A stretch of 64,000 bases of DNA from positions 1 to 64,000 of the forward strand of contig ML002212.1 of the NCBI GenBank assembly GCA_003614675.1. Reading direction: 5' to 3'. This document shows positions 26,183 to 59,862 of this stretch, piece after piece; position 1 is the stretch's first letter, and every line of letters begins with the position of its first letter. The notes under the pieces were generated by a model, which did no database searches, was not told the origin of the DNA, and saw only the letters and a program-made list of their open reading frames with translations. The stretch is from Dimargaris cristalligena. Taxonomy: Eukaryota. The position numbers and the translations under genes were made by a program.

Positions 26183-27635
26183 ATGTCTACCAGCGGTCAC
26201 TCCTCTGAAACCTCGGATAGATCCTCCCAGGCCTACGAGTATTGGAACAACCGGTGGAAGACCGGCGATGTTAAATGGGACCTCGGCGAGCCGGCCCCTT
26301 CGCTAGGGTATCTCCTCGACAGCTGGGCGATTCAGAAACATTTGAACCTGTGTCCCAAGAAAGAGATACTGACGAAAGGGCCTACGGCCGACGACCCCAA
26401 AGAATCGGTATCATCCCACCCACCCATCCGTACTTTGGACCAAGAGGCTAGTGCTGCCACCGACCAGCACAATGTGAATTTGGGCAACCGGTTGAAACCC
26501 CACTCTACCGAAAACGAGAGTGGTGAAAAGGCGGAAGGGGAAGTAAAGGAGGGTGCGGAGAAGGAGGCCTCGGGGACCCGTACCCCCATCTCCGGGGCTA
26601 TCATTGATACCATGCCCCTGGCGGAAGCCATGGACCTCCAGAAATTGGCCTGTGAACCGTCACCCGCCGCCTACAACGAATACCGGCACGCGCTCGTTCC
26701 GGGCTGTGGGTCCGGCTACGACGTGGTCCTGCTGGCGCAATACGGTTGGCGGGCCAAGGGTATTGACTTGAGTCCCATTGCCATTGACCGGGCCCGCCGG
26801 ATTGCTTCCGATAGCCCCGACAGCGACGGTGCTACATTTGCCGTGGAAAACTTTTTCGATACCCAAGCTCCAACGGGGGGATACCAATTGATCTTCGACT
26901 ATACGTAAGTTTTTTATCCCTATTATAGGGCCTAATAGGCCGGCGGGGGAGGGATAGTATTGTCCAAAGCAGGGGTGGAGGGGTTTGGTCCGGAAAGTGG
27001 AAGGGATTATAGTAGGTTGAGTCGTAGGAGTGAGAGATGGATACGAACTAAAATGCCGGCCAATCATACTTGAAGCCGTGTAACGAAGGAGTTTTTGTGC
27101 GTTTAGACGCGCGTTTTAGCACAACTCTCCTCCGTCGCCAACGTTGAACCAGGCATGCCTAGAGGATTCCCAACCCCCGCCACCCTTAATACCCCACCCT
27201 GCTCTGAACATGGGTAGAGCATACTCGACGGAAGTTGACCAACCTCAGCACGTCTAATAATATACACTAGCCCCGCCCAATACAATATGACTAAACCTGG
27301 TTGAATTGGCCTAATTTCAATTGTTAACCCTCCCCCTTGACATTGGTAGGTTTTTCTGTGCCCTGGACCCCAAGCTCCGTGAAGCGTGGGCCCGGAAAAT
27401 GTCCCAACTCCTTGCCAAACATGGCATTTTAGTGACCTTGATGTTCCCCACCAAACAACTCACCGACAATCCGCCGCCGCACACGAGTGCCCCTGAGGAT
27501 TATACGCGGGTTCTGAGCCCCTACTTTGATTTAGTGGGGGAAACGATTGCCGGAAAAGGCCCGGCAAGTCGACGGGAAATTGAAATGATTGCCCTGTGGC
27601 GGCTGAAAGAGGCGGAGCAGCAACCTAAACACTGA
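26183..27635 (+). CDS. SAM-dependent thiol/halide methyltransferase (TPMT/HOL family; exons 26183-26904, 27350-27635; ~335 aa)
   Basis: W..RW...WDLGEPAP, ALVPGCGSGYDV, GIDLS, ENFF, spliced LIFDYTFFCALDP..R..WA, and L.TLMFP. Confidence 0.9.
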
Positions 27636-44895: not shown

Positions 44896-46334
44896 GGCGA
44901 ATGAACGGGATATGCTCGATGAAAGATACTGGAGGGAAATGTGAGATTAAAAGAGGAGGAAGAGGCGATGGCTTCTACCTTAATAAAAATAATGACCGAG
45001 CGTGGACACGTACCCCAAGTGAAGTAATAGGGGGGTTAGATAAAAAGGGAGAAAATCCAGGTGGATACGGAGGGGAGGAGAGTACACAAAGCAGACTAAG
45101 TCAGTAGCCAAGGCCGGGAGATGATGGAGTATATATAAGGACGCGAATCCAAAAAGTGGAAATGAATGGGTAGTGTTGGCGTCCTTTAGGCGGCTGGACC
45201 AGGGTATTATATAGAAGTTGCCTGATGGTGGAGGAGATGATGGAAAAAGGGAAGGCGGACGACAGTGAGGGGAATGATGCGCCGGTGGTGGTGCTGAGTA
45301 GGGGGGATGATCCGCTACGTAGCTAGCTACTCCACCCGGTCAGAGGGGAACGGCGATCCCGCCTAACTCCCCTCTCTCTCCACCTCTAACTCTCCCAGCC
45401 TGTCTGTATCATTATTGGCAACCGTGTCCATCCCCGAATTCCTCCCCAGGTGTCCACTGCCTCACCCCTTTTATCCGCTAGCCCTATCTGCCTTATACTT
45501 CATTGGATTTTATTCGCCTAGCCGCATGCCTCTCAGATATACGCTCCAAGCGATCTCACTCTAAGTCGCTCAGTCGAGTCCGGTATTAACGGGCAGAACC
45601 TAACGCCTCCCCAGTGCGAGATGAAGGGCAATCATCCCATCTTTCCTTTCCATTGCCAGGCACTGAGGAGCCGCCACCAACTATGGAATCGTCGGCTGTT
45701 TTTGTTTACCCTGCCGCTCAATGAGGGAGTAGGTTCAGTCAACTAGGGGGGGCTGACAAGCCTGCCGAGCGCACTCTCTCCTCCAGCCTGGACCAGTCTG
45801 TGGCTACTGTCTTGAGACTGCCGCGTAACCCTGAGTCCCGGAAGAGGAGTTTCCCTTCATATATATATATTCGTTGGCAGCCGGCCGGACCCCTACACCT
45901 CCTTATTCCTTGGTGTATTCAGCTCATAAATTAAACGCGGTGTGACGCAGTAGTGTAAATTAAAAGCGGGGTGCCACATTGGGGCTAGTCATTTTTAGGT
46001 TGGTAGTAGTGAGTGATTAAGGGGGTCGGGTTGGATCAAAAAATACCCAGGAGCGAAGAAGCATGGGATAGCTATGCGAGGGGGATACTGACGTGGGGAT
46101 GAGGGAGATTTTTCTGCTATTCTCCCCTTGGACCTGATGGGCCATGTCCATCAGTCACTACGGCTCACACCTTCCGGCAGCTGCTTCTTTTACCGGTCTA
46201 ATTATAGCCAAAATCAAAATAAATAAGTAGATATTCCATTGCCACCCTTCACACTTGCTCTGGGGATAAATGGCCAACAAGCCGTAAATGGGATTAACTA
46301 AACAGCGGGTAGTGCGAGGGATTTGGGCTGGGAG

Positions 46335-46359
46335 TAGAGTAGAGTAGAGTAGAGTAGAG
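46335..46359. repeat. (TAGAG)5 pentanucleotide repeat
   Basis: Read directly. Confidence 0.9.
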
Positions 46360-49150
46360 TGAAAACACCGCCACTACTCCTCGGCTGGCTGTTTGATTCT
46401 AGTCTATTAATAATTCCCGGTTATCCCTTTCCCCATTGCTTCGTCTGGCTGTATCCAATACCAGTGCCTGGAAGGGCCGTCCGCTTGATATCTCTTTCCC
46501 TTTCCCCCCGTATAAATCCCCGGCCTACCTTGTCAAGTGGATGTTCGTGGCCATCCTGCCCCACCTGGCCTTAAGACCACCCCGCCAATCCATTGGGCCT
46601 GTTTCAAACAGCGTCTCTTATACCTCTACTCTACTCTACAGAATAAAACATATATAAATGGAAACGGAAACGGTCCAGTCTTCGTTTCCCACACCGCCAT
46701 TCCCAACCACACGCCGACTCAGATGGCCACGACCTAATAATAGATGGACCAGGGTGTGGTGGTGGTATATGGTATAGAATGAAGCTAAGTCGTTGGTTCG
46801 CAAAGGGGCTGCTGCTCCGTTAAGCCCCTGTGTCCCGTGCTCTTTGCTCGCCCACCCCTCAATTACTTACACACCTAAAAATCGATTCTCAGCCGGGCAG
46901 TAGTTTAACCCCTGGCAACCCGCTCCCCGCAAATAGACGATAAAAATACCCAATTCCGTTTTAGCCAAAAGGCTTTTTGTGGCAGTTTTAATAAAAGATT
47001 CGGTCTAATCTATGTGAGGTGACATCACTTTGGCGGCCCCACAGCATTCCCTTGCGGCCATTGGATGTGCGGTTGCCATCGACCTGTCTCATTGGTAAAA
47101 ACACCCGTCACAAGCGGGCTTGAAACCCTTCCCCCCCCCCTTGTGCCCGTCGTTCCTATCACCCAAGCCCTGCCATCATCGGCGGATGATGACTATTAAG
47201 CGGCGCCGTGAACGGGGCCTCCAATGATTCCTAGCCCCCCGTCGTTGATTCGACGCGTCTAGAGCGCTGTGCTATTTTTAGATTTCGGAGAGTGTGGCCA
47301 CATGACCTCTCTACAGTGTGCTTACTAGTTAGCGATAGCCTTTAATCCCCTCTCTTATTTACTACCTGTAATTTCTAGTTGTCCATTTCCACATACTGTA
47401 CGATACAGTGCCTTTTACTTCATAGCTTAAGGTCACTCTATATTTATCCCCGGCTTTGCAGTTTGTAGGTTTTATTCGTCATTTTTTCATTATTTTTTTT
47501 AAAAAATTACACAACATATACACCATTCATGGCAGCCCCTACGCTAGTCGGCATATGCCAAGTTATTAAAAGACGGGGGTCCTATTTCTCCCGCTGAATC
47601 CATGTGGTAGTTTCTATTAGTATTTTCGTGATGGTGCTTTTCCATGGTCAAGTGAGACAGTGGGCTTCCCTTTAGCAGCTACATTGAGTGTTTTTAAACA
47701 ATCGATAGTGCTAATATTTGGACTACTAGTATAATCCAGTAGTATTAGTGCAGCTAGGCGAAGCAAACATGCAATGTGATATTGGTCATGCCAAAAAAAA
47801 AAAAGGTGATCAAGCCATCTATGATATCCCCTCCCCCACACCTTACTCGTTGCGGAGAGTCTGCTAATCCGCCCGATATGCAAACTGGTCCAGGAAACCT
47901 TGTAAAGAAAACAGGGCTGAAAGGACTGGTGGTTCACCTCCGCCGACTCTTCCGCTTTGTGCCTTCCGCTTTACCGCTCACTCAACCCAATGTCCAATCC
48001 CTATTATGGGTTCCGATTTTTTAATCCAAAATTCCAAATTTGAGTAAAGTCTCTCTTCCCTTCATATTTCCCCCCGCTATTGTTGAAAGGGTCACTGTTG
48101 GAATTGGGCTAAGTATAGAAGGCTAGCAATCCCCCCTCGTATAACCGCGTATTGGTCGAATCCGGCATGCGTCGTCCCTATTGGCTGATGAACCCAATAA
48201 CAGGGGGGCTGACTGGGCTTGGGTGAGACCTGCCATTCCCTCATCTACCTTACCAGCCAACCCTTCTATTTGGCTATTACATGTGTCGCACCAGTACTAC
48301 GGGTGTTTTGTAGCCCCGGCCGCAGCCAGGTGTGCCGACTGGATGTTGAAACCCGCTTATTGTTAAAGTGCCCGGGTTGATTATATATAGATTACATGTA
48401 ACTCCAATAGAAAAAAGGGAAGCACCATGAACAATATACGACACGTCATTGTCCGTGTATACAGCTACCCTTTCCATTTAGTATAGTTTTATTGAACATT
48501 AATAACCTCGGGTCTCTGATACAAATATTAATGGTTTGACGTAATAATCGGTAGGTTCCCCTCATGGGCCTTACGTTAAAGCAGGTTACGCCAATTTTCG
48601 ATTCTTTCACCCCTGAGTCGTTATTCCGTCATCTCAACTGACACCTGCGCTAAACTGCCCCGTCTCCAGAAAGGTCCCCGCGATTCGGGTGGATGTAAAT
48701 GACGAGCCTTTTTCATTGAGCTTAATCCTTCAAACACCTTGGTTCTTTATCAATTTACCCCTATCACATGGCCCACCCGGAATAACTATTAGGGGGTACG
48801 CCTACGTCGGGGAAGGGGGCGTAATGTTGGATAGTAAAAAGTGACCCTGCCTTATGAAGGTTCGGTGTTGGCAAAGCGAGAGGGATAGGGATAGATTGGG
48901 TGCTATATATAGCTTCTCATTATACTCAGTAATGTCTATCCTTGGGGGTGACCAATACGGCAATATGGTGTTCAAAGCGATGGTCCGTCGCTTCCCTAAT
49001 CCACTGTATTAGGCCTCGGAGTTGTAAATAATATTGATGGATGTGTCCTAAAGTTGGATCGGCGCACTATATTCAAATCACTATCAGTGTGAAGGAGGCG
49101 AAATGGAAATGCGAAGCATATACCTTTAAAGGTAGAAGATGGTCAAATTA

Positions 49151-52095: not shown

Positions 52096-54946
52096 GGCTC
52101 TCGGGGGAGTAATAAATATGACTGAGAATGTGCGGGTATGGAGTGGCTGGAAGGGTTTATACAGTCGGATACTCGGGGCTTAAAATAGGTGGATGTGAAG
52201 GATTAAAATTTAGTAGGCTGATGGACAAACGCGGGATACGGTGTCGAGGTTGTTGGTAGAATCTAACACCTGCTATGAATGTAGCTGCAAGAGATGAATT
52301 GGACACAGGTTATGTAAATGAGAGATAATCTATATCCCGGACATTGGTCAGTGGGGTTTATATATACATCAGGGGTGACCCAAAGCACACCATCGATTCC
52401 TTGTTTCTTCCGTTGTAGATTCCCATCCGTTAGGAAGGGTACACAAAACGTATTTTTAACCAGCCCCCCCAGATAACCATATGCCGGGCCTTTCTTGCAT
52501 AGATTATATTCCCAACGGGATGGCGCGGAATTGTTAAAAATATCGTTTGTGAAACATGTCACCATTCGTATCCTTCCATCTTCAATTTTGGTTTTCATCC
52601 CTGCTTATCCAACACACTCCCCCTCTCACCACCCCACGACTTACCGCAGTGTACATTCAATACATGTGCAGATAGAGCCGTCGGCAGTTGGGATTTCAAT
52701 AGAAGGTATTGGTTTATTTTCGACATGGACACGTCTTCAGTAGCACCTTTCAGGAGAGATGCCAACGCCCTTTCTTACGCTGAAATCCCCTCGGTTCACG
52801 ATATGCTGTGGTCCACACGATAAGGGAGAATATATAGATATGAAAAAGGAGGTTACTGTTGCCTGCTTCATTAATTCCCGAAAGCGCGTAGATGGCCGGG
52901 TCATCGCTTCGACATAGTCATCCCCTTGACCGACTTGTGTACAATCCCCCCCCTCCACCTTTGACTATTCTACTTTCGCGTATAAAGAAGTACCACTGAA
53001 TCTAAAGAACGATGAAGAGCCGGAAGCAGTGCCACAGAGCCACCCCAGATGAGGAAATCATGAAGTAGCCTGTGTAACCCAATGGAAGCTGCTCGAGCCT
53101 CCCCTCCCACTTCCCCGCCCGACTATTACCGTCACTGATCTTCGCCATCTTATGTTCCTCGTCCAATATTCCACCGATGGGCCCGATTGAGCGGCGGTTT
53201 GGCAGGTTGTATTGGCTCATGATTGTAGACTGGATTTTGCACTGCCATCCCTAACTATTTGGTCCAGGAATGCCTGTATTCGACACGATCATTAGCAAGG
53301 TAGTGGGGGGGGGGTTGCCTCTTGATCACAAGTATTCTTAGTAATATCTGATATTGATGTCAGGGCATTGACAGGAGGAATACAGGCCATGCGCGGCATT
53401 CCAGGTAGAGTGGGCTCAAAGTAACCCCATTACTGCAACATGACGCCATTCGTAAACACGAAAAAATCAAACTGGTTTCCGCCCGTAAGTCTTCTAGAAT
53501 GGGGACTGTCTGCTCCCAGGCATATCGCCCTTTTCTTTATAGATATTTTTTAGGGACACCGATGTGGGGTAAATGAGTAAGGTTATCGGATCTAAAGTTT
53601 CAGGGTCCACGAAACAGGTTTTTAACCACTGGCCCTCTTAATCGAACACTATGCTAGACTACCGGTGGTACCTTGGCCACTGTGGCAAGAGGACTTCGGC
53701 TAGACGTATTTCAACTACCAGGAGGGGATATAGGGTTGGGGAGCTGGTACCATGTTCCAGTATGATGTAAGGGTTAGAGGGGGGTAATTGGCATAACAGT
53801 TACCCACATATTATATAGATATGTTGGAGGGGGGGTGATATTCCCGACCCTTGCATCGCCACTGGTAGCAGTACCCTTTAGAAAAACATCTAAAAGGGGG
53901 CGGGAGTATAAGACCAGTCACAAAATCATCAGATACGCTCTCATGTGTTCTCGTGGATTGGGAATTCCCCGAGTTTTGAAGGCATTGACTGGCCGTTCCA
54001 GGCCTACCGGTATGGGATTCACCGACCGACAAGCAGCCCCATCTGCAAGGAGAGTGAAGCATTGGTTAGCCCCCCCTTTTTTCATTGCCTTGGTAGGATA
54101 GCGTAGTTTGAACCGCTAAGGAGATGAATGAGTTCATATAATGGCCAAGTCGCCACGACTGACCCCATGCTGTCGTTTAACAGCCCAGGCGCGATTTAGC
54201 CTGGATGGAGGGGTACAGGTCGGCTTTAATCAGTGTTTCGAAGACCAAGGTATCCGCCAACTGATACTGACTTGATTGAAGGGGCAGCTCTATTTAATTT
54301 AAATGAATAATTATGTCAGAGCAGCAGGTGGAACTCCCGCATGTTGGGAAGGGGTCGTGTGCTTGGAGTCCGTGACTTCCTCTTATGGAGAGTAATCCGA
54401 TCGCCAATCAGCTCCACAGCCAGTGGATGGTAGACTAGAGTTTCCGAAAGTAAAGAATTCACGCAGCTAATTCAACGGGGGGAATGGCTCCGCTACTCTT
54501 GTAAGCTATTGGACGCCATTAGTCTAAATGATACTCTATATTAACGTGGAGATAAATCATTGTGGACCATCATTTTCATTTACAAACTCCTAACTAACTG
54601 GAACCCGCGACATTACAATAATAGGCAGACTCCAAAAATGTATAACACCACATAAACTGTAAGATCGAATAATATTTTATTCGTGAAAATAAGACAACAC
54701 AAAGAGAAAGTAGGCGGGGTGGGGGGAGGGGTATGACGACTCAGGCTTAAGAAGCATTTAAAACGACGGACGGGGAGGTTTTAACCACCTTCCATCGCGA
54801 GTGTAGGGAGGATGTGGGAATAGGATGGAGGTGGGAGATAGGAGGGGTATACGGCTGAATACAGGAAGAGAAAATATGTGAGAAAGAGTAGGCATAAAAT
54901 CCACATTAAAGTGAATCCTATAGTATCCTAAACCACCAACACATAC

Positions 54947-56232
54947 TTAAGCCTGAAGAGCACGGCGAGCATCACGCTCCTCGGCAATGGAGAGCTTGAC
55001 ACCCTTGCCCTTGGGCAGAGAGATCCAGGCCTTGTTACCCTTACCGATGACGAAGACGTTGGACAGACGGGTGGCGAACTTGTGGTTAGCGGCATCCCGG
55101 ATGTGGACGATATCGAAACCACCATCGTGCTTCTCAATGTCGACGATGATACCGGCACGACCAATGTTAGACCCACCGGTGATCATGGCCAGGTTACCGA
55201 CCTCAAACTTGAGGAAGCCGTCGATCTTGCCGGACTCAATGTCGAGCTTGACGGTGTCGTTGACCTTGACGAGGGGGTCGGGGTAACGGATGGTACGACC
55301 GTCGTGGGTGACGATGAAAGGAACACCCTTGACACCGAGTTGCATGCGCTTGACCTTGCACAGCTTGTACTGGGCTTCGGCGTCAGTGATGCGGTGGATG
55401 GTGAAGCGTCCCTTGGTGTCGTAGACCAGACGGAACTGCTCGCCGGACTTTTCAATGGTAATCACATCCATGAAACCGGTGGGGTAGGTGTCGTCGGTGC
55501 GGACCTTGCCGTCAACCTTCACCAAGCGCTGCATGAGAATGCTAATCACCTCGCGGCGGTTCAGGGCGTACTTAAGACGGTTACGCAGGAACACGACCAA
55601 GGGCAGGCACTCGCGGGCCTTGTGGGGACCCTGGGAAGGCTTGGGAGCGTAGATGCCGGTCAGTTTGTCCAGCATCCAGTGCTTGGGCGCGTTAAGGCGC
55701 TTCATGTGCTTCTTGAAACCACGGGCCTAAACAACCAGCAGAAAGAATGAACATGAGGGTGGAGGAAGAAGTAGGTATAAAAATAATATAGAATCAATTG
55801 GTTAGTTAGTTGGTTCGCGCTGGGAATGTTTGGAGAAATGTGAATCAACTCGAATCTCGTGAGGGACCGGTGGTTCAATCAAATAATGGTACGGTTGGAT
55901 GTATTCCTCGAACAATAAATGCATTAGGATAATGAAGTCGTCGCCGCATCTATTAGCCATCCTCCAAACGTGGCATCCATCCATCCATCGATATAGGTCT
56001 ACTTGATCCAATGACGAGACCAAATATAATGGTACGCTTCGCCATCGATACGACGCTGGGTCCATTGATGAAGGTTCGATCGGCTCGAATAATTGTGTCG
56101 AGGAAGTTTGGCTAATCGGGATGGGGGAGGTTGACGGATGGATGGATGGGCTTCGTTGGAGGATGGTGGATGACGGTCTGGCGGAGGTGGTATGAGGGTG
56201 TGTAGGTAGGGAAGACGCAGACAACGTACCAT
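54947..56232 (-). CDS. RPS4: 40S ribosomal protein S4/eS4 (exon 1 coding part = ATG at 56232-56230; exon 2 55726-54947; 260 aa)
   Basis: [23 protein letters not shown]...[12 protein letters not shown]...[18 protein letters not shown]. Donor GTACGT directly follows the ATG, branch ACTAACTAAC at 55810-55801, acceptor TAG. Confidence 0.97.
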
Positions 56233-57224
56233 TTTGATTGATTATGCTGCCAAACGGAGATGGATCCTACAGAGTGACAAGAAAGAGAAGAGGGGGATTT
56301 CAACTTGGGGCTAGGGCGAATAGTTGTTATACAACAACATCCGGGCCTTTCTTCTTGTATCTGGTGTGTATAGGGGGGGCGAACACTTGCACCGTATTGT
56401 AAGCGTAGGCTGCTTATAGGCTAACAACAACTACTAAACTCTGCCCATATACTACTCACTCTCGCACCCAAAAGGTCGTTTTTCTTTTGCTATATGGGAC
56501 AGGCCATATGTGGTTTAGGCCATTGTTACGCTATTATTTTCTCCCATCTAAGCGAATTGAGGTGATTGGATTTCCCCCATTCCCCTATAGCTACTGGCCC
56601 AGGCTATAAGATGGATGGCCTTGTTCACCAGGTGGGTGGGGTAAGTGATAGGGGAACGCCTATAGCATCCGAAGCCAATCACGTGACACAGCCTAAGGGG
56701 TGGTTCGGCTTGGCTGTTTTATACTCGCTCCTACAGATCCGCAGTCCACAAGGTGCACAAACATATTTAGCATCCCTAATATTAATGCTCCAAGCTTGAC
56801 GTACTAGTTTCGACCATGGATCTTCCCCACCATAGCAACTATAGCCCTATTTAACGAATCCACCATTCTATTGCATTGAAAAAGATACGATAGGTTTAAA
56901 AGTACATTTATCCAAAACCTCCCAACCAAGAATCAGTTGGGTATTCGACTATTGTATCGAAATATAATTAGACGAGCCGGAATACAGGCAGGTTATAAAC
57001 TAAAAGTGCGGGTCACTAATACCAGCACCCCGGTGTTTAATACCGAGTGGGGGCTACAGGTCCCACCACGCACGGCCCAAGGTGAACGGATGTCGAACTA
57101 TATATATATAAAAACAATACAAAAATTCGTATGCTAAATGGGTTAAGGATAAGAGTGACAGTGTACATACGGAGCTAAGCGGATGATTATTACCCAACCC
57201 AACCGATGGTGAGTGGTGGGGCTA

Positions 57225-58854
57225 TTAGCTGAAGAACAGACTGCCGGCCATTTCGACATTTCCGTTGGCTTGAGTCAAAAGGCGGATGGCCACCTCCCTT
57301 GATGCCCCGAGGTTGACGATTTGGGCGATAGCATTCTCGGAAAAACGACTGGCTGGGGATGTCGTAGGCACCTTTACTGCCGAAGGGCCGGGTGCTTGAT
57401 GCTGGGTGGGGGATGTCACGGGCGCCCTGGCCGCAATAGGGCCGGGCGCTTGGTGACGGACAGGGTCACCCGGGGGCAAGGGAGTCGACATTTTGGGATC
57501 ATCGGTTTTCGAGTCCCTGGCGAAATTGGGTACTTCATGTTCGTGGAGGAACGGGACGCTGATATCATCGAAGATCAGGGCGTCGGTTTTGAGGTCAATG
57601 GTGGCCTGGTGGCGCCGCAGCATATCTAAGCCGATGAGGACATCCATTTCCGGAATGTTTAGAACATTGAATGCGCAGACTAGATGCCGACCGCCCACGA
57701 CCAATTCGGCGCGGTGGATGCGGCCAATGATTTTAGAGGTTCCCACTCCTTTGGCCATCCCATGGAAGCGAGTGTCAATCAAATGGGACAGTCCACAGGT
57801 TTCGGTGAAATGGGCCCCCATAACACTGACCCCGGCCCCCGAGTCCACAAAGGCCTTGACGGGGTGCTTGTTAACCATACAGTTGACGTACAGCATCGTG
57901 ACGTGGCTAAAGGTCTCCGGGTTGTGTTCGAGGGCGGACTGGTAGCTGTCCTCGACGTTCCGCAACCGAATGAGGTTGGCGATTTTTTCCTGGGCTTCGG
58001 GACTAAATGGATCGGCCTCCAATACAGCCTGATTAGAGGATATGGGGGAAGGGGAAGGTGGTATGGTGAGACAGGGGAAAGAAGAGCACATAATATGAAG
58101 ATCGTTAATCAGGGGCCGTGGGGATCACGGCCAGGGGAACCGGTCATTCATGGTTGAATGGAAGGACTTCCACCAGCCAAGTCGCTTTCAGACATAAGTA
58201 TCCCCCCCCCCCAAGTAGCCGGGATTATAACTAACGCAATAGTCCTTACCAATTCACGCTGCTGTTCTTCGGCGTTCCGAATCAGTTTATCTAGGATGAC
58301 AGGATCGCGTTGGGCGGCCTGGGCCAGATTAGGATCCCGACTGGCTATATGCCGCAGGAACGAAGCCCGGTCAATTTGGCCTAGAATCGGATGGGCCCAG
58401 GAGCCAGAGCCCGAGGCACCTCCGGCTACGGGTAATTCGGGACGCTTAAACTGCCGACTGACCACCATGGCGTCGTTATCCCCGATTCCGTAGGCACCCA
58501 GGGTTTTGTTGTTGTCTTGTAGGAGGGTACCGTGGTGGGCTATAAGTTGTTCGCCGGGTGCAATGTCCGTCTATTGGGAGAGTGTAAATGTGCCGGCGCC
58601 CGGGTAAGACAATGGTGTGAATGGGTAAAGGATGACTTGAAAAGTCAGCCGGGCTATTTCATGTTGCAATAAGGGAACATATCCTTTGAAATGGAGGGAT
58701 AGTGCGGCCACCCGAGGGCTAGAAACCCAATACAGATGGTGAAAAGGGGACCTACCTCGAACTCGAGCAGGGCCTTAAGGTCGCTGAGCGACATGTCCGG
58801 ATTGACGTCGACGACGACGATTTGGTCGTCGGAGGTGGTGACGAGTAGCTTCAT
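57225..58854 (-). CDS. DDI1: Ddi1 UBL-helical-RVP aspartic protease-UBA protein (exons 58854-58756, 58570-58250, 58028-57225; ~407 aa)
   Basis: N-terminal UBL, ADPFSPEAQEKI, PETFSHVTMLYVN, VKAFVDSGA, LIDTRFHGMAKGVG, IGLDMLRRHQATIDL, and a C-terminal UBA (LGASRE.AI..L.QANGNVE.A). Confidence 0.94.
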
Positions 58855-59099
58855 GGTGAGATAATAGGCGGACTTAAGAGTGGGCTGTGCTTGTTGGCTT
58901 GTGAAAGTGACAGTAAAGAATGAGTAGTGGTTAATGAAACTCACTGATAAAATGAATGGGGCTCTGGAGATGGGGAAAGTTGGAGCAAGGGTTGGGTCGA
59001 GAAAGCAGTAGGGGAAAGTGCCTATTTGTGCTCCGATAGTCCCCACGCAGGCGAACTTAGACTTAGTAATTGGGCTGGGATTGTCCACGTATATGAATG

Positions 59100-59243
59100 A
59101 TATGGGAGAAGTTCATTCAGGCTGTATAATGAAAAATCCATTGGATGGGGCCAATATTACTGGTTAAAAGCTATTCTCACATATATTCGCCCATACACCT
59201 ATTATGTAAAACCTTGTACAGCTGGTTTGAATTTCACCCATAT
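59100..59243. mobile_element. MITE-like element, well-preserved copy
   Basis: ATATGGGAGAAGTTCATTCAGGCTGTA ... TACAGCTGGTTTGAATTTCACCCATAT (~27-bp imperfect TIR). Confidence 0.82.
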
Positions 59244-59862
59244 CCTTGTCGTTGGTCCAGTAGTATGAAGTCCTCTTCCTTTCATTATCCATGGCGATGG
59301 ATGATAAATGCACAACAGCAGACACAAACGAAGTCACGGGGTTCCATTTTAGTCTCCACTTCAGGGTTCCCGGTCTTAACGCGCTAAAAATGGCGTGTTC
59401 TCCTATTGGTAAGGAGAGGCGGGAGATCATACTACTAGGATCCGTGGTGTCCTTTCCTTTCACATGCTAGGAGGGCCATCCTAAAGAAATCATCCAACTG
59501 CATATACTATACTGTCTGTGGCACTTGAAAAACACTCATACATTATTCATACACACAGGAAGCTTGGGCCTTGAAGCAAAGGAAAGGGGGGCATATATTA
59601 CATTATAGCCTCGGAAAAACACGTTGGTTGGGCTTAACATATAACAGAGCCGGCTCTCTTCCCGAGGTTCCTTCATTGCTTTTTACCCTCTTTTCTTGTA
59701 TAGTATAGCCTTGTTTGGCCCATGCACCCTTCACTTACGTACTTCCTGTGGTTAGTTTAGTTACACCTACCCGTATCTCCCCACCAAACCCTCTTCTCCC
59801 CCAGCCCAGCCCGCACTACCGCTACCCCTCCACGCCGGCCCAGTTGATGCCCCCCACCCGCC

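Follow-up and report, generated by a model that had tools for sequence, protein, structure and literature searches.

To our knowledge, structure-based control of splicing in ribosomal-protein genes is known almost only from budding yeast, where it usually acts through a bound protein or through a helix that spares the splice site. Here we describe, in the early-diverging fungus Dimargaris cristalligena, a ribosomal protein eS4 (RPS4) gene whose first intron carries antisense copies of the gene's own start codon and 5′ splice site. The gene lies on contig ML002212.1 (GenBank assembly GCA_003614675.1), of which we analyzed positions 1 to 64,000, called the window below. The closest yeast cases are RPL30, RPS14B, RPL22B, RPS9A/B, RPS22B, RPL7B and RPL18B, which are described as having an intron at the 5′ end of the gene with a structured element at or near the 5′ splice site (PMC7732827, PMC12311795, PMC13232506). 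The eS4 intron also lies next to the start codon, and its predicted structured element includes the 5′ splice site (pairing probability P 0.9-1.0; folding z-score -3.57). In the yeast genes binding of the cognate protein has been shown experimentally and the pairing is local, whereas the eS4 fold requires no protein to be assumed, places the pairing partner 333 nt downstream and occurs in an early-diverging fungus.

Several other described systems share individual traits with this intron. Zipper stems, as reported for RPS17B and RPL7A, are long-range intron pairings that shorten the path that leads to the branch point from the 5′ splice site; they leave the splice site free by at least 10 nt, whereas the eS4 stem contains both splice site and AUG (Rangan et al. 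2025, PMC12350175). The “gate” of starvation-induced yeast introns, a pairing between 5′ untranslated region (UTR) and intron, governs engagement of U1, but its reported partner lies 16-55 nt downstream, leaves the splice site uncovered and promotes U1 binding; at eS4 the partner occupies intron positions 333-355 and the site is covered. The same account states that ribosomal-protein introns mostly lack a gate (Tsang et al., bioRxiv 2026, 10.64898/2026.08.06.743327). In the thiamine pyrophosphate (TPP) riboswitch intron of Neurospora crassa, a segment about 530 nt away pairs beside the 5′ splice site and decides its use; that pairing is described as controlled by a ligand-binding aptamer and as activating the site, whereas the eS4 intron has no match to any Rfam model (Li and Breaker 2013, PMC3597705). 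Designed stems that sequester a 5′ splice site also pair exon 1 and the splice site with an intronic complement, and according to the report they are synthetic, local and housed in a yeast reporter, whereas the eS4 stem is natural and long-range and has both a second copy and a nested helix alongside it (Scharfen et al., bioRxiv 2025, PMC12637734). Symmetrical stwintrons and introner-like elements are fungal introns with inverted repeats and potentially double-stranded RNA; their reported hallmarks are 45-55-nt terminal inverted repeats at both ends and many genomic copies, whereas the eS4 locus is single-copy, lacks terminal inverted repeats and a target-site duplication, and has one arm in an exon (Fekete et al. 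2021, PMC8469720). Judged by its predicted fold, the eS4 element would act in the manner of the structure-based controls already known for the use of 5′ splice sites, and it falls outside the zipper, gate, TPP-riboswitch and stwintron classes. The sequence-only reading, which had proposed a splicing-control switch at this intron, knew of no such element described for RPS4, and our literature searches turned up none.

Complements of the eS4 donor within its first intron

The eS4/RPS4 gene is encoded on the minus strand. It consists of an ATG micro-exon (56232-56230), the sole coding triplet of exon 1, followed straight after the ATG by a phase-0 intron of 503 nt (56229-55727, GTACGT...TTTAG) and an exon 2 of 259 codons plus stop (55726-54947, beginning ARGFKKH). 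The junction reads ATG|GTACGT in the DNA, and the pre-mRNA around the start reads ...UCAAUCAAAAUG|GUACGUUG. An identical protein has a public gene model (P0002, 260 amino acids, starting MARGFKKH) that agrees with this joining of exon 1 to exon 2, and the gene model is sound. The nearest named eS4 proteins all come from Dimargaritales: Tieghemiomyces parasiticus (83%), Dispira parvispora (81%) and Dispira simplex (79%), which makes a host within the Kickxellomycotina probable. Two overlapping CTAAC motifs at 55809-55801 on the minus strand, which by the branch-site consensus are the likely branch site, are followed by no AG before the 3′ splice site. With its 503 nt, the intron exceeds both introns of the neighboring DDI1-like gene (185 and 221 nt) in length by a factor of 2.3-2.7.

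The donor arm (56241-56222, minus strand) comprises 9 nt of presumed 5′UTR, the AUG and the 5′ splice site GUACGUUG. Its entire length pairs with intron positions 333-355 (anti-donor copy 1; 55897-55875, minus strand), giving an outer stem of 20 bp that is interrupted by two bulges, of 2 nt and 1 nt, and has a duplex energy of -21.5 kcal/mol (RNAduplex). Copy 1 ends 69-73 nt upstream of the CTAAC motifs. A second anti-donor copy at intron positions 192-209 (56038-56021, minus strand) pairs with the donor through 11 contiguous pairs with AAUGGUACGUU and four more, at -16.6 kcal/mol by the same program, and the third-ranked pairing site reaches just -8.9 kcal/mol. The energy of the outer stem was matched in neither of two sets of dinucleotide shuffles of the intron (0/1000 and 0/2000). 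It was also matched by none of 258 control blocks of 483 nt, sampled on both strands across the remainder of the window, among which the top block reached -20.1 kcal/mol at a G-U-rich chance site (37989-37966). For copy 2, 14 of 2000 shuffles and a single one of the 258 blocks did as well. On the plus strand of the window, 55885 and 56028 are the sole occurrences of the 9-mer AATGGTACG; its complement is confined to the donor. Other strong complements in the window (37989-37966, 52626-52605, 30243-30225 and 26741-26758) were rejected as candidates; they are G-U-rich or lie in sequence bearing open reading frames (ORFs), and none sits at a splice donor.

Between the donor and copy 1, a nested helix of about 29 bp joins 56166-56133 (5′ arm) to 55989-55957 (3′ arm), both on the minus strand. 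It is built of 11 bp, a small internal loop and 16 bp including one G-U pair, has a duplex energy of -40.2 kcal/mol and is present in the minimum free energy (MFE) structure, where blocking its 3′ arm costs 42.5 kcal/mol. The helix juxtaposes copy 1 and the donor and leaves copy 2 in its loop. Its region holds the only (CCAT)3 in the window. The region as a whole has an MFE of -140.05 kcal/mol compared with -119.6 ± 5.7 for shuffles, a z-score of -3.57 that none of 100 shuffles equaled. The best duplex between the two intron halves was matched by 0/500 shuffles but by 137 of 290 real blocks; this statistic is uninformative, because long RNAduplex targets track G+C content.

All five pairings listed in the sequence-only reading are present in the sequence. 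Three of them (the outer stem, the pairing with copy 2 and the nested helix) exceed chance, whereas the two further helices it had pointed to (55904-55916 with 56092-56105, and 55952-55959 with 56109-56116) score 20 on an ungapped scale and are at background level. The eS4 intron holds 19 helices at that score; the window blocks hold 15.75 on average, and 72 of 242 have at least 19. Complementarity within the intron is island-like: the arms are 90-100% complementary, and for the 55- and 59-nt spacers between them, as for both halves of the central loop, complementarity stays at the level of shuffles (325/1000 and 283/1000 score as well). A single decaying palindrome is ruled out by these values. 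We also searched for known RNA families; the Rfam covariance models gave no match at E ≤ 1 in 54500-57000 and none at gathering score across the window, and there was no transfer RNA; on these grounds a small nucleolar RNA, a riboswitch (the TPP type included) and other known RNAs were rejected.

Predicted masking of the 5′ splice site

In a 651-nt context the pairs between the donor and copy 1 form with P 0.9-1.0, and this value is unchanged from 20 to 42 °C. The mean probability of being unpaired over positions -3 to +6 is 0.049 for the eS4 donor, compared with 0.23 and 0.38 for the donors of the DDI1-like introns and 0.3 for a distant eS4 intron. Opening positions -3 to +8 costs 13.0 kcal/mol on the MFE structure and 13.7 kcal/mol on the ensemble, within an overall opening cost of 10.9-13.7 kcal/mol. 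Taken separately, the 5′UTR half of the stem contributes -7.8 kcal/mol and the half with AUG and 5′ splice site -11.4 kcal/mol. The proposal that the U1 site and the start codon are hidden is thus upheld as a thermodynamic prediction.

We folded successive prefixes of the transcript, which yields equilibrium predictions without pseudoknots rather than measurements. Before copy 2 is made, in the first ~190 nt of the intron, the donor is predicted to be open in part, with an unpaired probability of 0.2-0.3. With transcription extended to 56015, and copy 2 thereby included, the donor is captured (P 0.99). When the 3′ arm of the nested helix has been made, at 55975-55955, the pairing with copy 2 falls to 0.0 and the donor is released (P unpaired ~0.3), and from 55872 onward, with copy 1 complete, it is recaptured (P 0.9). 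This order of masking, unmasking and masking follows from the geometry: the loop of the nested helix encloses copy 2, whereas copy 1 falls beyond that helix and can nest with the donor. The sequence-only reading had described mutually exclusive or pseudoknotted folds; the exclusion holds for donor with copy 2 against the nested helix, and the two further pairings that it had named for this are those at background level.

We tentatively favor, without great confidence, the reading in which a pre-mRNA fold encoded by the intron acts in cis, sequesters the gene's own 5′ splice site and start codon and serves as a kinetic brake on U1 recruitment. In this model the donor segment from -12 to +8 would pair with its own complement at intron positions 333-355, with the nested helix of ~29 bp uniting the two. 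Copy 2 could capture the donor only ahead of nested-helix formation. During transcription the donor would be partly open for ~190 nt, then masked by copy 2, then freed by the helix and finally masked permanently by copy 1. U1 small nuclear ribonucleoprotein (snRNP) would have to bind in the open windows, and late transcripts would be locked, neither spliced nor translated from the AUG. Such a brake would set eS4 output, and could modulate it by U1 availability or elongation speed, with no trans-acting sensor required. We assign it an inhibitory direction because pairing over the 5′ splice site is reported to reduce gene output in yeast reporters in step with stem stability (PMC12637734). A further-reaching version, in which the intron is a natural co-transcriptional splicing timer that exposes, hides, re-exposes and locks the site, and in which eS4 mRNA yield would read U1 availability or polymerase speed, and with it growth state, without a dedicated sensor protein, is in our estimate decidedly unlikely.

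Competing explanations and comparative evidence

A number of observations weigh against the kinetic brake. A strongly masked splice site is awkward for a highly expressed essential gene, and partners separated by 330 nt may never pair in vivo should U1, helicases or proteins be first to bind. The assignment of the nine upstream nucleotides to the 5′UTR is provisional and derives from a CT-rich tract at 56295-56270. In a look-elsewhere control, 4 of 3122 arbitrary 20-mers from the window had a downstream complement equally good relative to the perfect duplex, a rate at which chance donor complements are expected in some introns genome-wide, though rarely in any given one. Copies 1 and 2 are identical at 13 of 14 positions over their core and have their extra bases, as compared with the donor, in common; because of this they may not be independent, one being perhaps a duplicate of the other. 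A seeded duplex scan of 242 window blocks gave nine in which some helix equals or surpasses the nested one in strength, so that the nested helix alone is only modestly unusual. Between strains the intron diverges faster than exon 2: a second strain (run X5) shows 41 differences over 7.1 kb, eight of them in the 503-nt intron and three in the 780-nt exon 2. These changes break no pair of the outer stem or nested helix, one turning a G-C into a G-U pair and another, at 56132, adding 2 bp to the nested helix; however, the fold was at least as stable in 19.6% of 250 random sets of eight substitutions, so the strain evidence is not significant.

Distant relatives of the intron were likewise unhelpful to the brake. 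An ATG-adjacent phase-0 eS4 intron of 63-407 nt also occurs in six distant eukaryotic metagenome loci, and the donor complement is absent from all six by the shuffle test with 500 shuffles each (as good or better in 153 for L005, 34 for L011, 22 for L020, 246 for L021, 175 for L050 and 241 for L051). The ATG-only first exon and its intron position are ancient, because the intron recurs at the same place in these loci, and the pairing feature is lineage-specific at most, because they lack the donor complement. In favor of selection on the fold count the island-like complementarity, the single-copy state of the locus and the two DDI1-like introns, which contain neither a donor complement (87/300 and 23/300 shuffles as good) nor excess folding (z 0.04 and -1.17).

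With these points in view, a serious null is that the feature is a by-product of local inverted duplication. It holds that inverted copies of the junction arose by template switching or inverted duplication, that one was later duplicated, that inverted (CCAT)n runs added the helix, and that the resulting fold, rarely formed in vivo, is functionless and tolerated. We consider this fairly unlikely. The indels shared by the two near-identical copies, the rapid evolution of the intron with no significant structure-preserving pattern, the nine blocks that match the nested helix and the six distant introns without the feature all favor it, and so does a second inverted microsatellite pair in the window. 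That pair, (GTAGA)n and (CTCTA)n runs about 290 nt apart at 46334-46359 and 46624-46639, lies in an ORF-poor stretch and shows that paired inverted repeats are not peculiar to the RPS4 intron; a perfect 11-nt inverted repeat near it (46545-46555 and 46722-46732) crosses it. Against the by-product stand the need for three separate coincidences in one intron, correctly nested, the contrast of 90-100% complementary arms with random spacers, and the restriction of (CCAT)3 to this place; moreover, were the predicted strong block to form at the splice site of an essential gene and serve no use, selection would purge it. The opposite direction of effect is proposed if the intron is compacted to aid splicing, in the manner of a zipper, which we judge unlikely. 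[quoted passage not shown] The path from 5′ splice site to CTAAC would shrink from 423-427 nt to 69-73 nt, the intron is unusually long beside its neighbors, the 5′UTR half of the outer stem gives -7.8 kcal/mol by itself against -11.4 kcal/mol for the other half, and zipper stems are reported to be frequent in long yeast ribosomal-protein introns, where they can boost splicing (PMC12350175, PMC12311795). However, the outer stem covers -12 to +8 where the published yeast criteria ask, on steric grounds, for a gap of at least 10 nt between stem and splice site; for the nested helix this gap is 63 nt, and its linkers of 63 and 151 nt exceed the 85-nt limit given there (PMC12350175), although those of the outer stem (0 and 69-73 nt, with the branch site placed by CTAAC alone) are within range. 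The reporter result that gives the brake its sign (PMC12637734) also speaks against a gain in splicing, and copy 2 is left unexplained.

Under autoregulation, free eS4 would bind the bulged outer stem or the helix junction, stabilize the masked fold and repress its own splicing. The gene class and the position of the element match RPL30, RPS14B and RPL22B, for which introns near the N-terminus and inhibition of splicing by the encoded protein are described (PMC7732827), and both copies leave bulges at the same places in the stem, which could be a recognition feature. The masked fold is, however, predicted at P ~1 in protein-free form, so that a stabilizer would add little; literature searches turned up no report of RPS4/eS4 autoregulation, and “RPS4” is absent from the main text of a 95-gene yeast screen (PMC7732827). 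We rate this explanation as very unlikely, and the response to eS4 that the sequence-only reading had offered as one option is unsupported. Highly improbable, finally, is a feature at the level of DNA or antisense transcription, in which each of the three copies of CAAA..AATGGTACG would act as a protein-binding site regardless of orientation, or else as a donor-like site of an antisense transcript, and the RNA pairing would be incidental. The 9-mer does occur in three copies and nowhere else in the 64 kb, and both intron copies read ATG|GTACG on the plus strand. Yet copy 1 resembles the donor at 20 of 23 positions across two indels, which an RNA helix tolerates as bulges and a binding site would not; the nested helix is left without a role, and on the plus strand of the intron no ORF exceeds 62 amino acids, with no Rfam match on either strand. 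Taking these alternatives together with the points raised against it, the kinetic brake is the reading we prefer, at the tentative strength given above.

A mobile element (an introner, a miniature inverted-repeat transposable element (MITE) or a symmetrical stwintron) was considered and ruled out by copy number and geometry. Contig depth over 55739-56272 is at single-copy level in runs X3 and X5 (85% likeness), so the eS4 intron is not a dispersed repeat. One arm extends into exon 1, 148 nt separate the end of the other from the 3′ splice site, and no direct repeat flanks the arms.

Scans for eS4 relatives gave 80 metagenome loci, with at most 77% protein identity and mostly resembling complementary DNA, six loci on prokaryote genome contigs, none of them close, and none on viral contigs; the best relative over all collections has at most 78% protein identity. 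Five short contigs in bacterial assemblies (L081-L085; Paracoccus, Mycobacterium, Ciceribacter and Paraclostridium) carry a eukaryote-type eS4 at 62-78% identity and are most likely eukaryotic contamination. In the metagenome contig L022 (1-577), the 5′ end of an 18S ribosomal RNA-like sequence runs by way of an apparent 3′ splice site into exon 2 of eS4, and this is probably a chimeric assembly. The eS4 intron of L011 likewise has a (CATC)n run. Public eS4 models of two Dimargaritales (P0004 and P0005) start oddly, one being labeled “partial” with an ARGPKKH start and the other beginning MQRARGVKKH. Such starts are as expected if annotators overlooked an ATG-only exon, and they hint that the intron position may be shared in the order.

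Neighboring features and significance of the fold

The DDI1-like gene (57225-58854, minus strand) shows by eye a ubiquitin-like N-terminus, a retropepsin-type protease motif DSGA and a UBA-like C-terminus. Its introns of 185 nt (58755-58571) and 221 nt (58249-58029) were used above for comparison, and a G-run in the second (~58201-58222) is length-variable between runs. About 250 bp upstream of this gene and 3 kb from the eS4 intron, 59096-59247 holds a MITE-like element of ~140-150 bp with 34-nt terminal inverted repeats (76% complementary). In each of the three runs its contig depth is above the single-copy level by a factor of 10^4-10^5, and over 59100-59243 the depth exceeds 10^5. The X5 strain lacks the element at this site, where one contig joins 59100 to 59240, and because of this it looks like a recent insertion.

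We know of no description of splicing regulation in this early-diverging fungal lineage, a point at which no search was aimed. If the eS4 fold never forms in vivo, it would be a caution that strong single-sequence folding signals in introns need not imply function. If it is real, a splice site together with a start codon would here be engulfed by a natural stem of long range, with a second copy set for sequential masking. The three short arms of the fold would offer a compact test case for the kinetics of RNA folding against those of U1 binding, and the principle of controlling ribosomal-protein splicing through pre-mRNA structure would be older, or more widespread among fungi.

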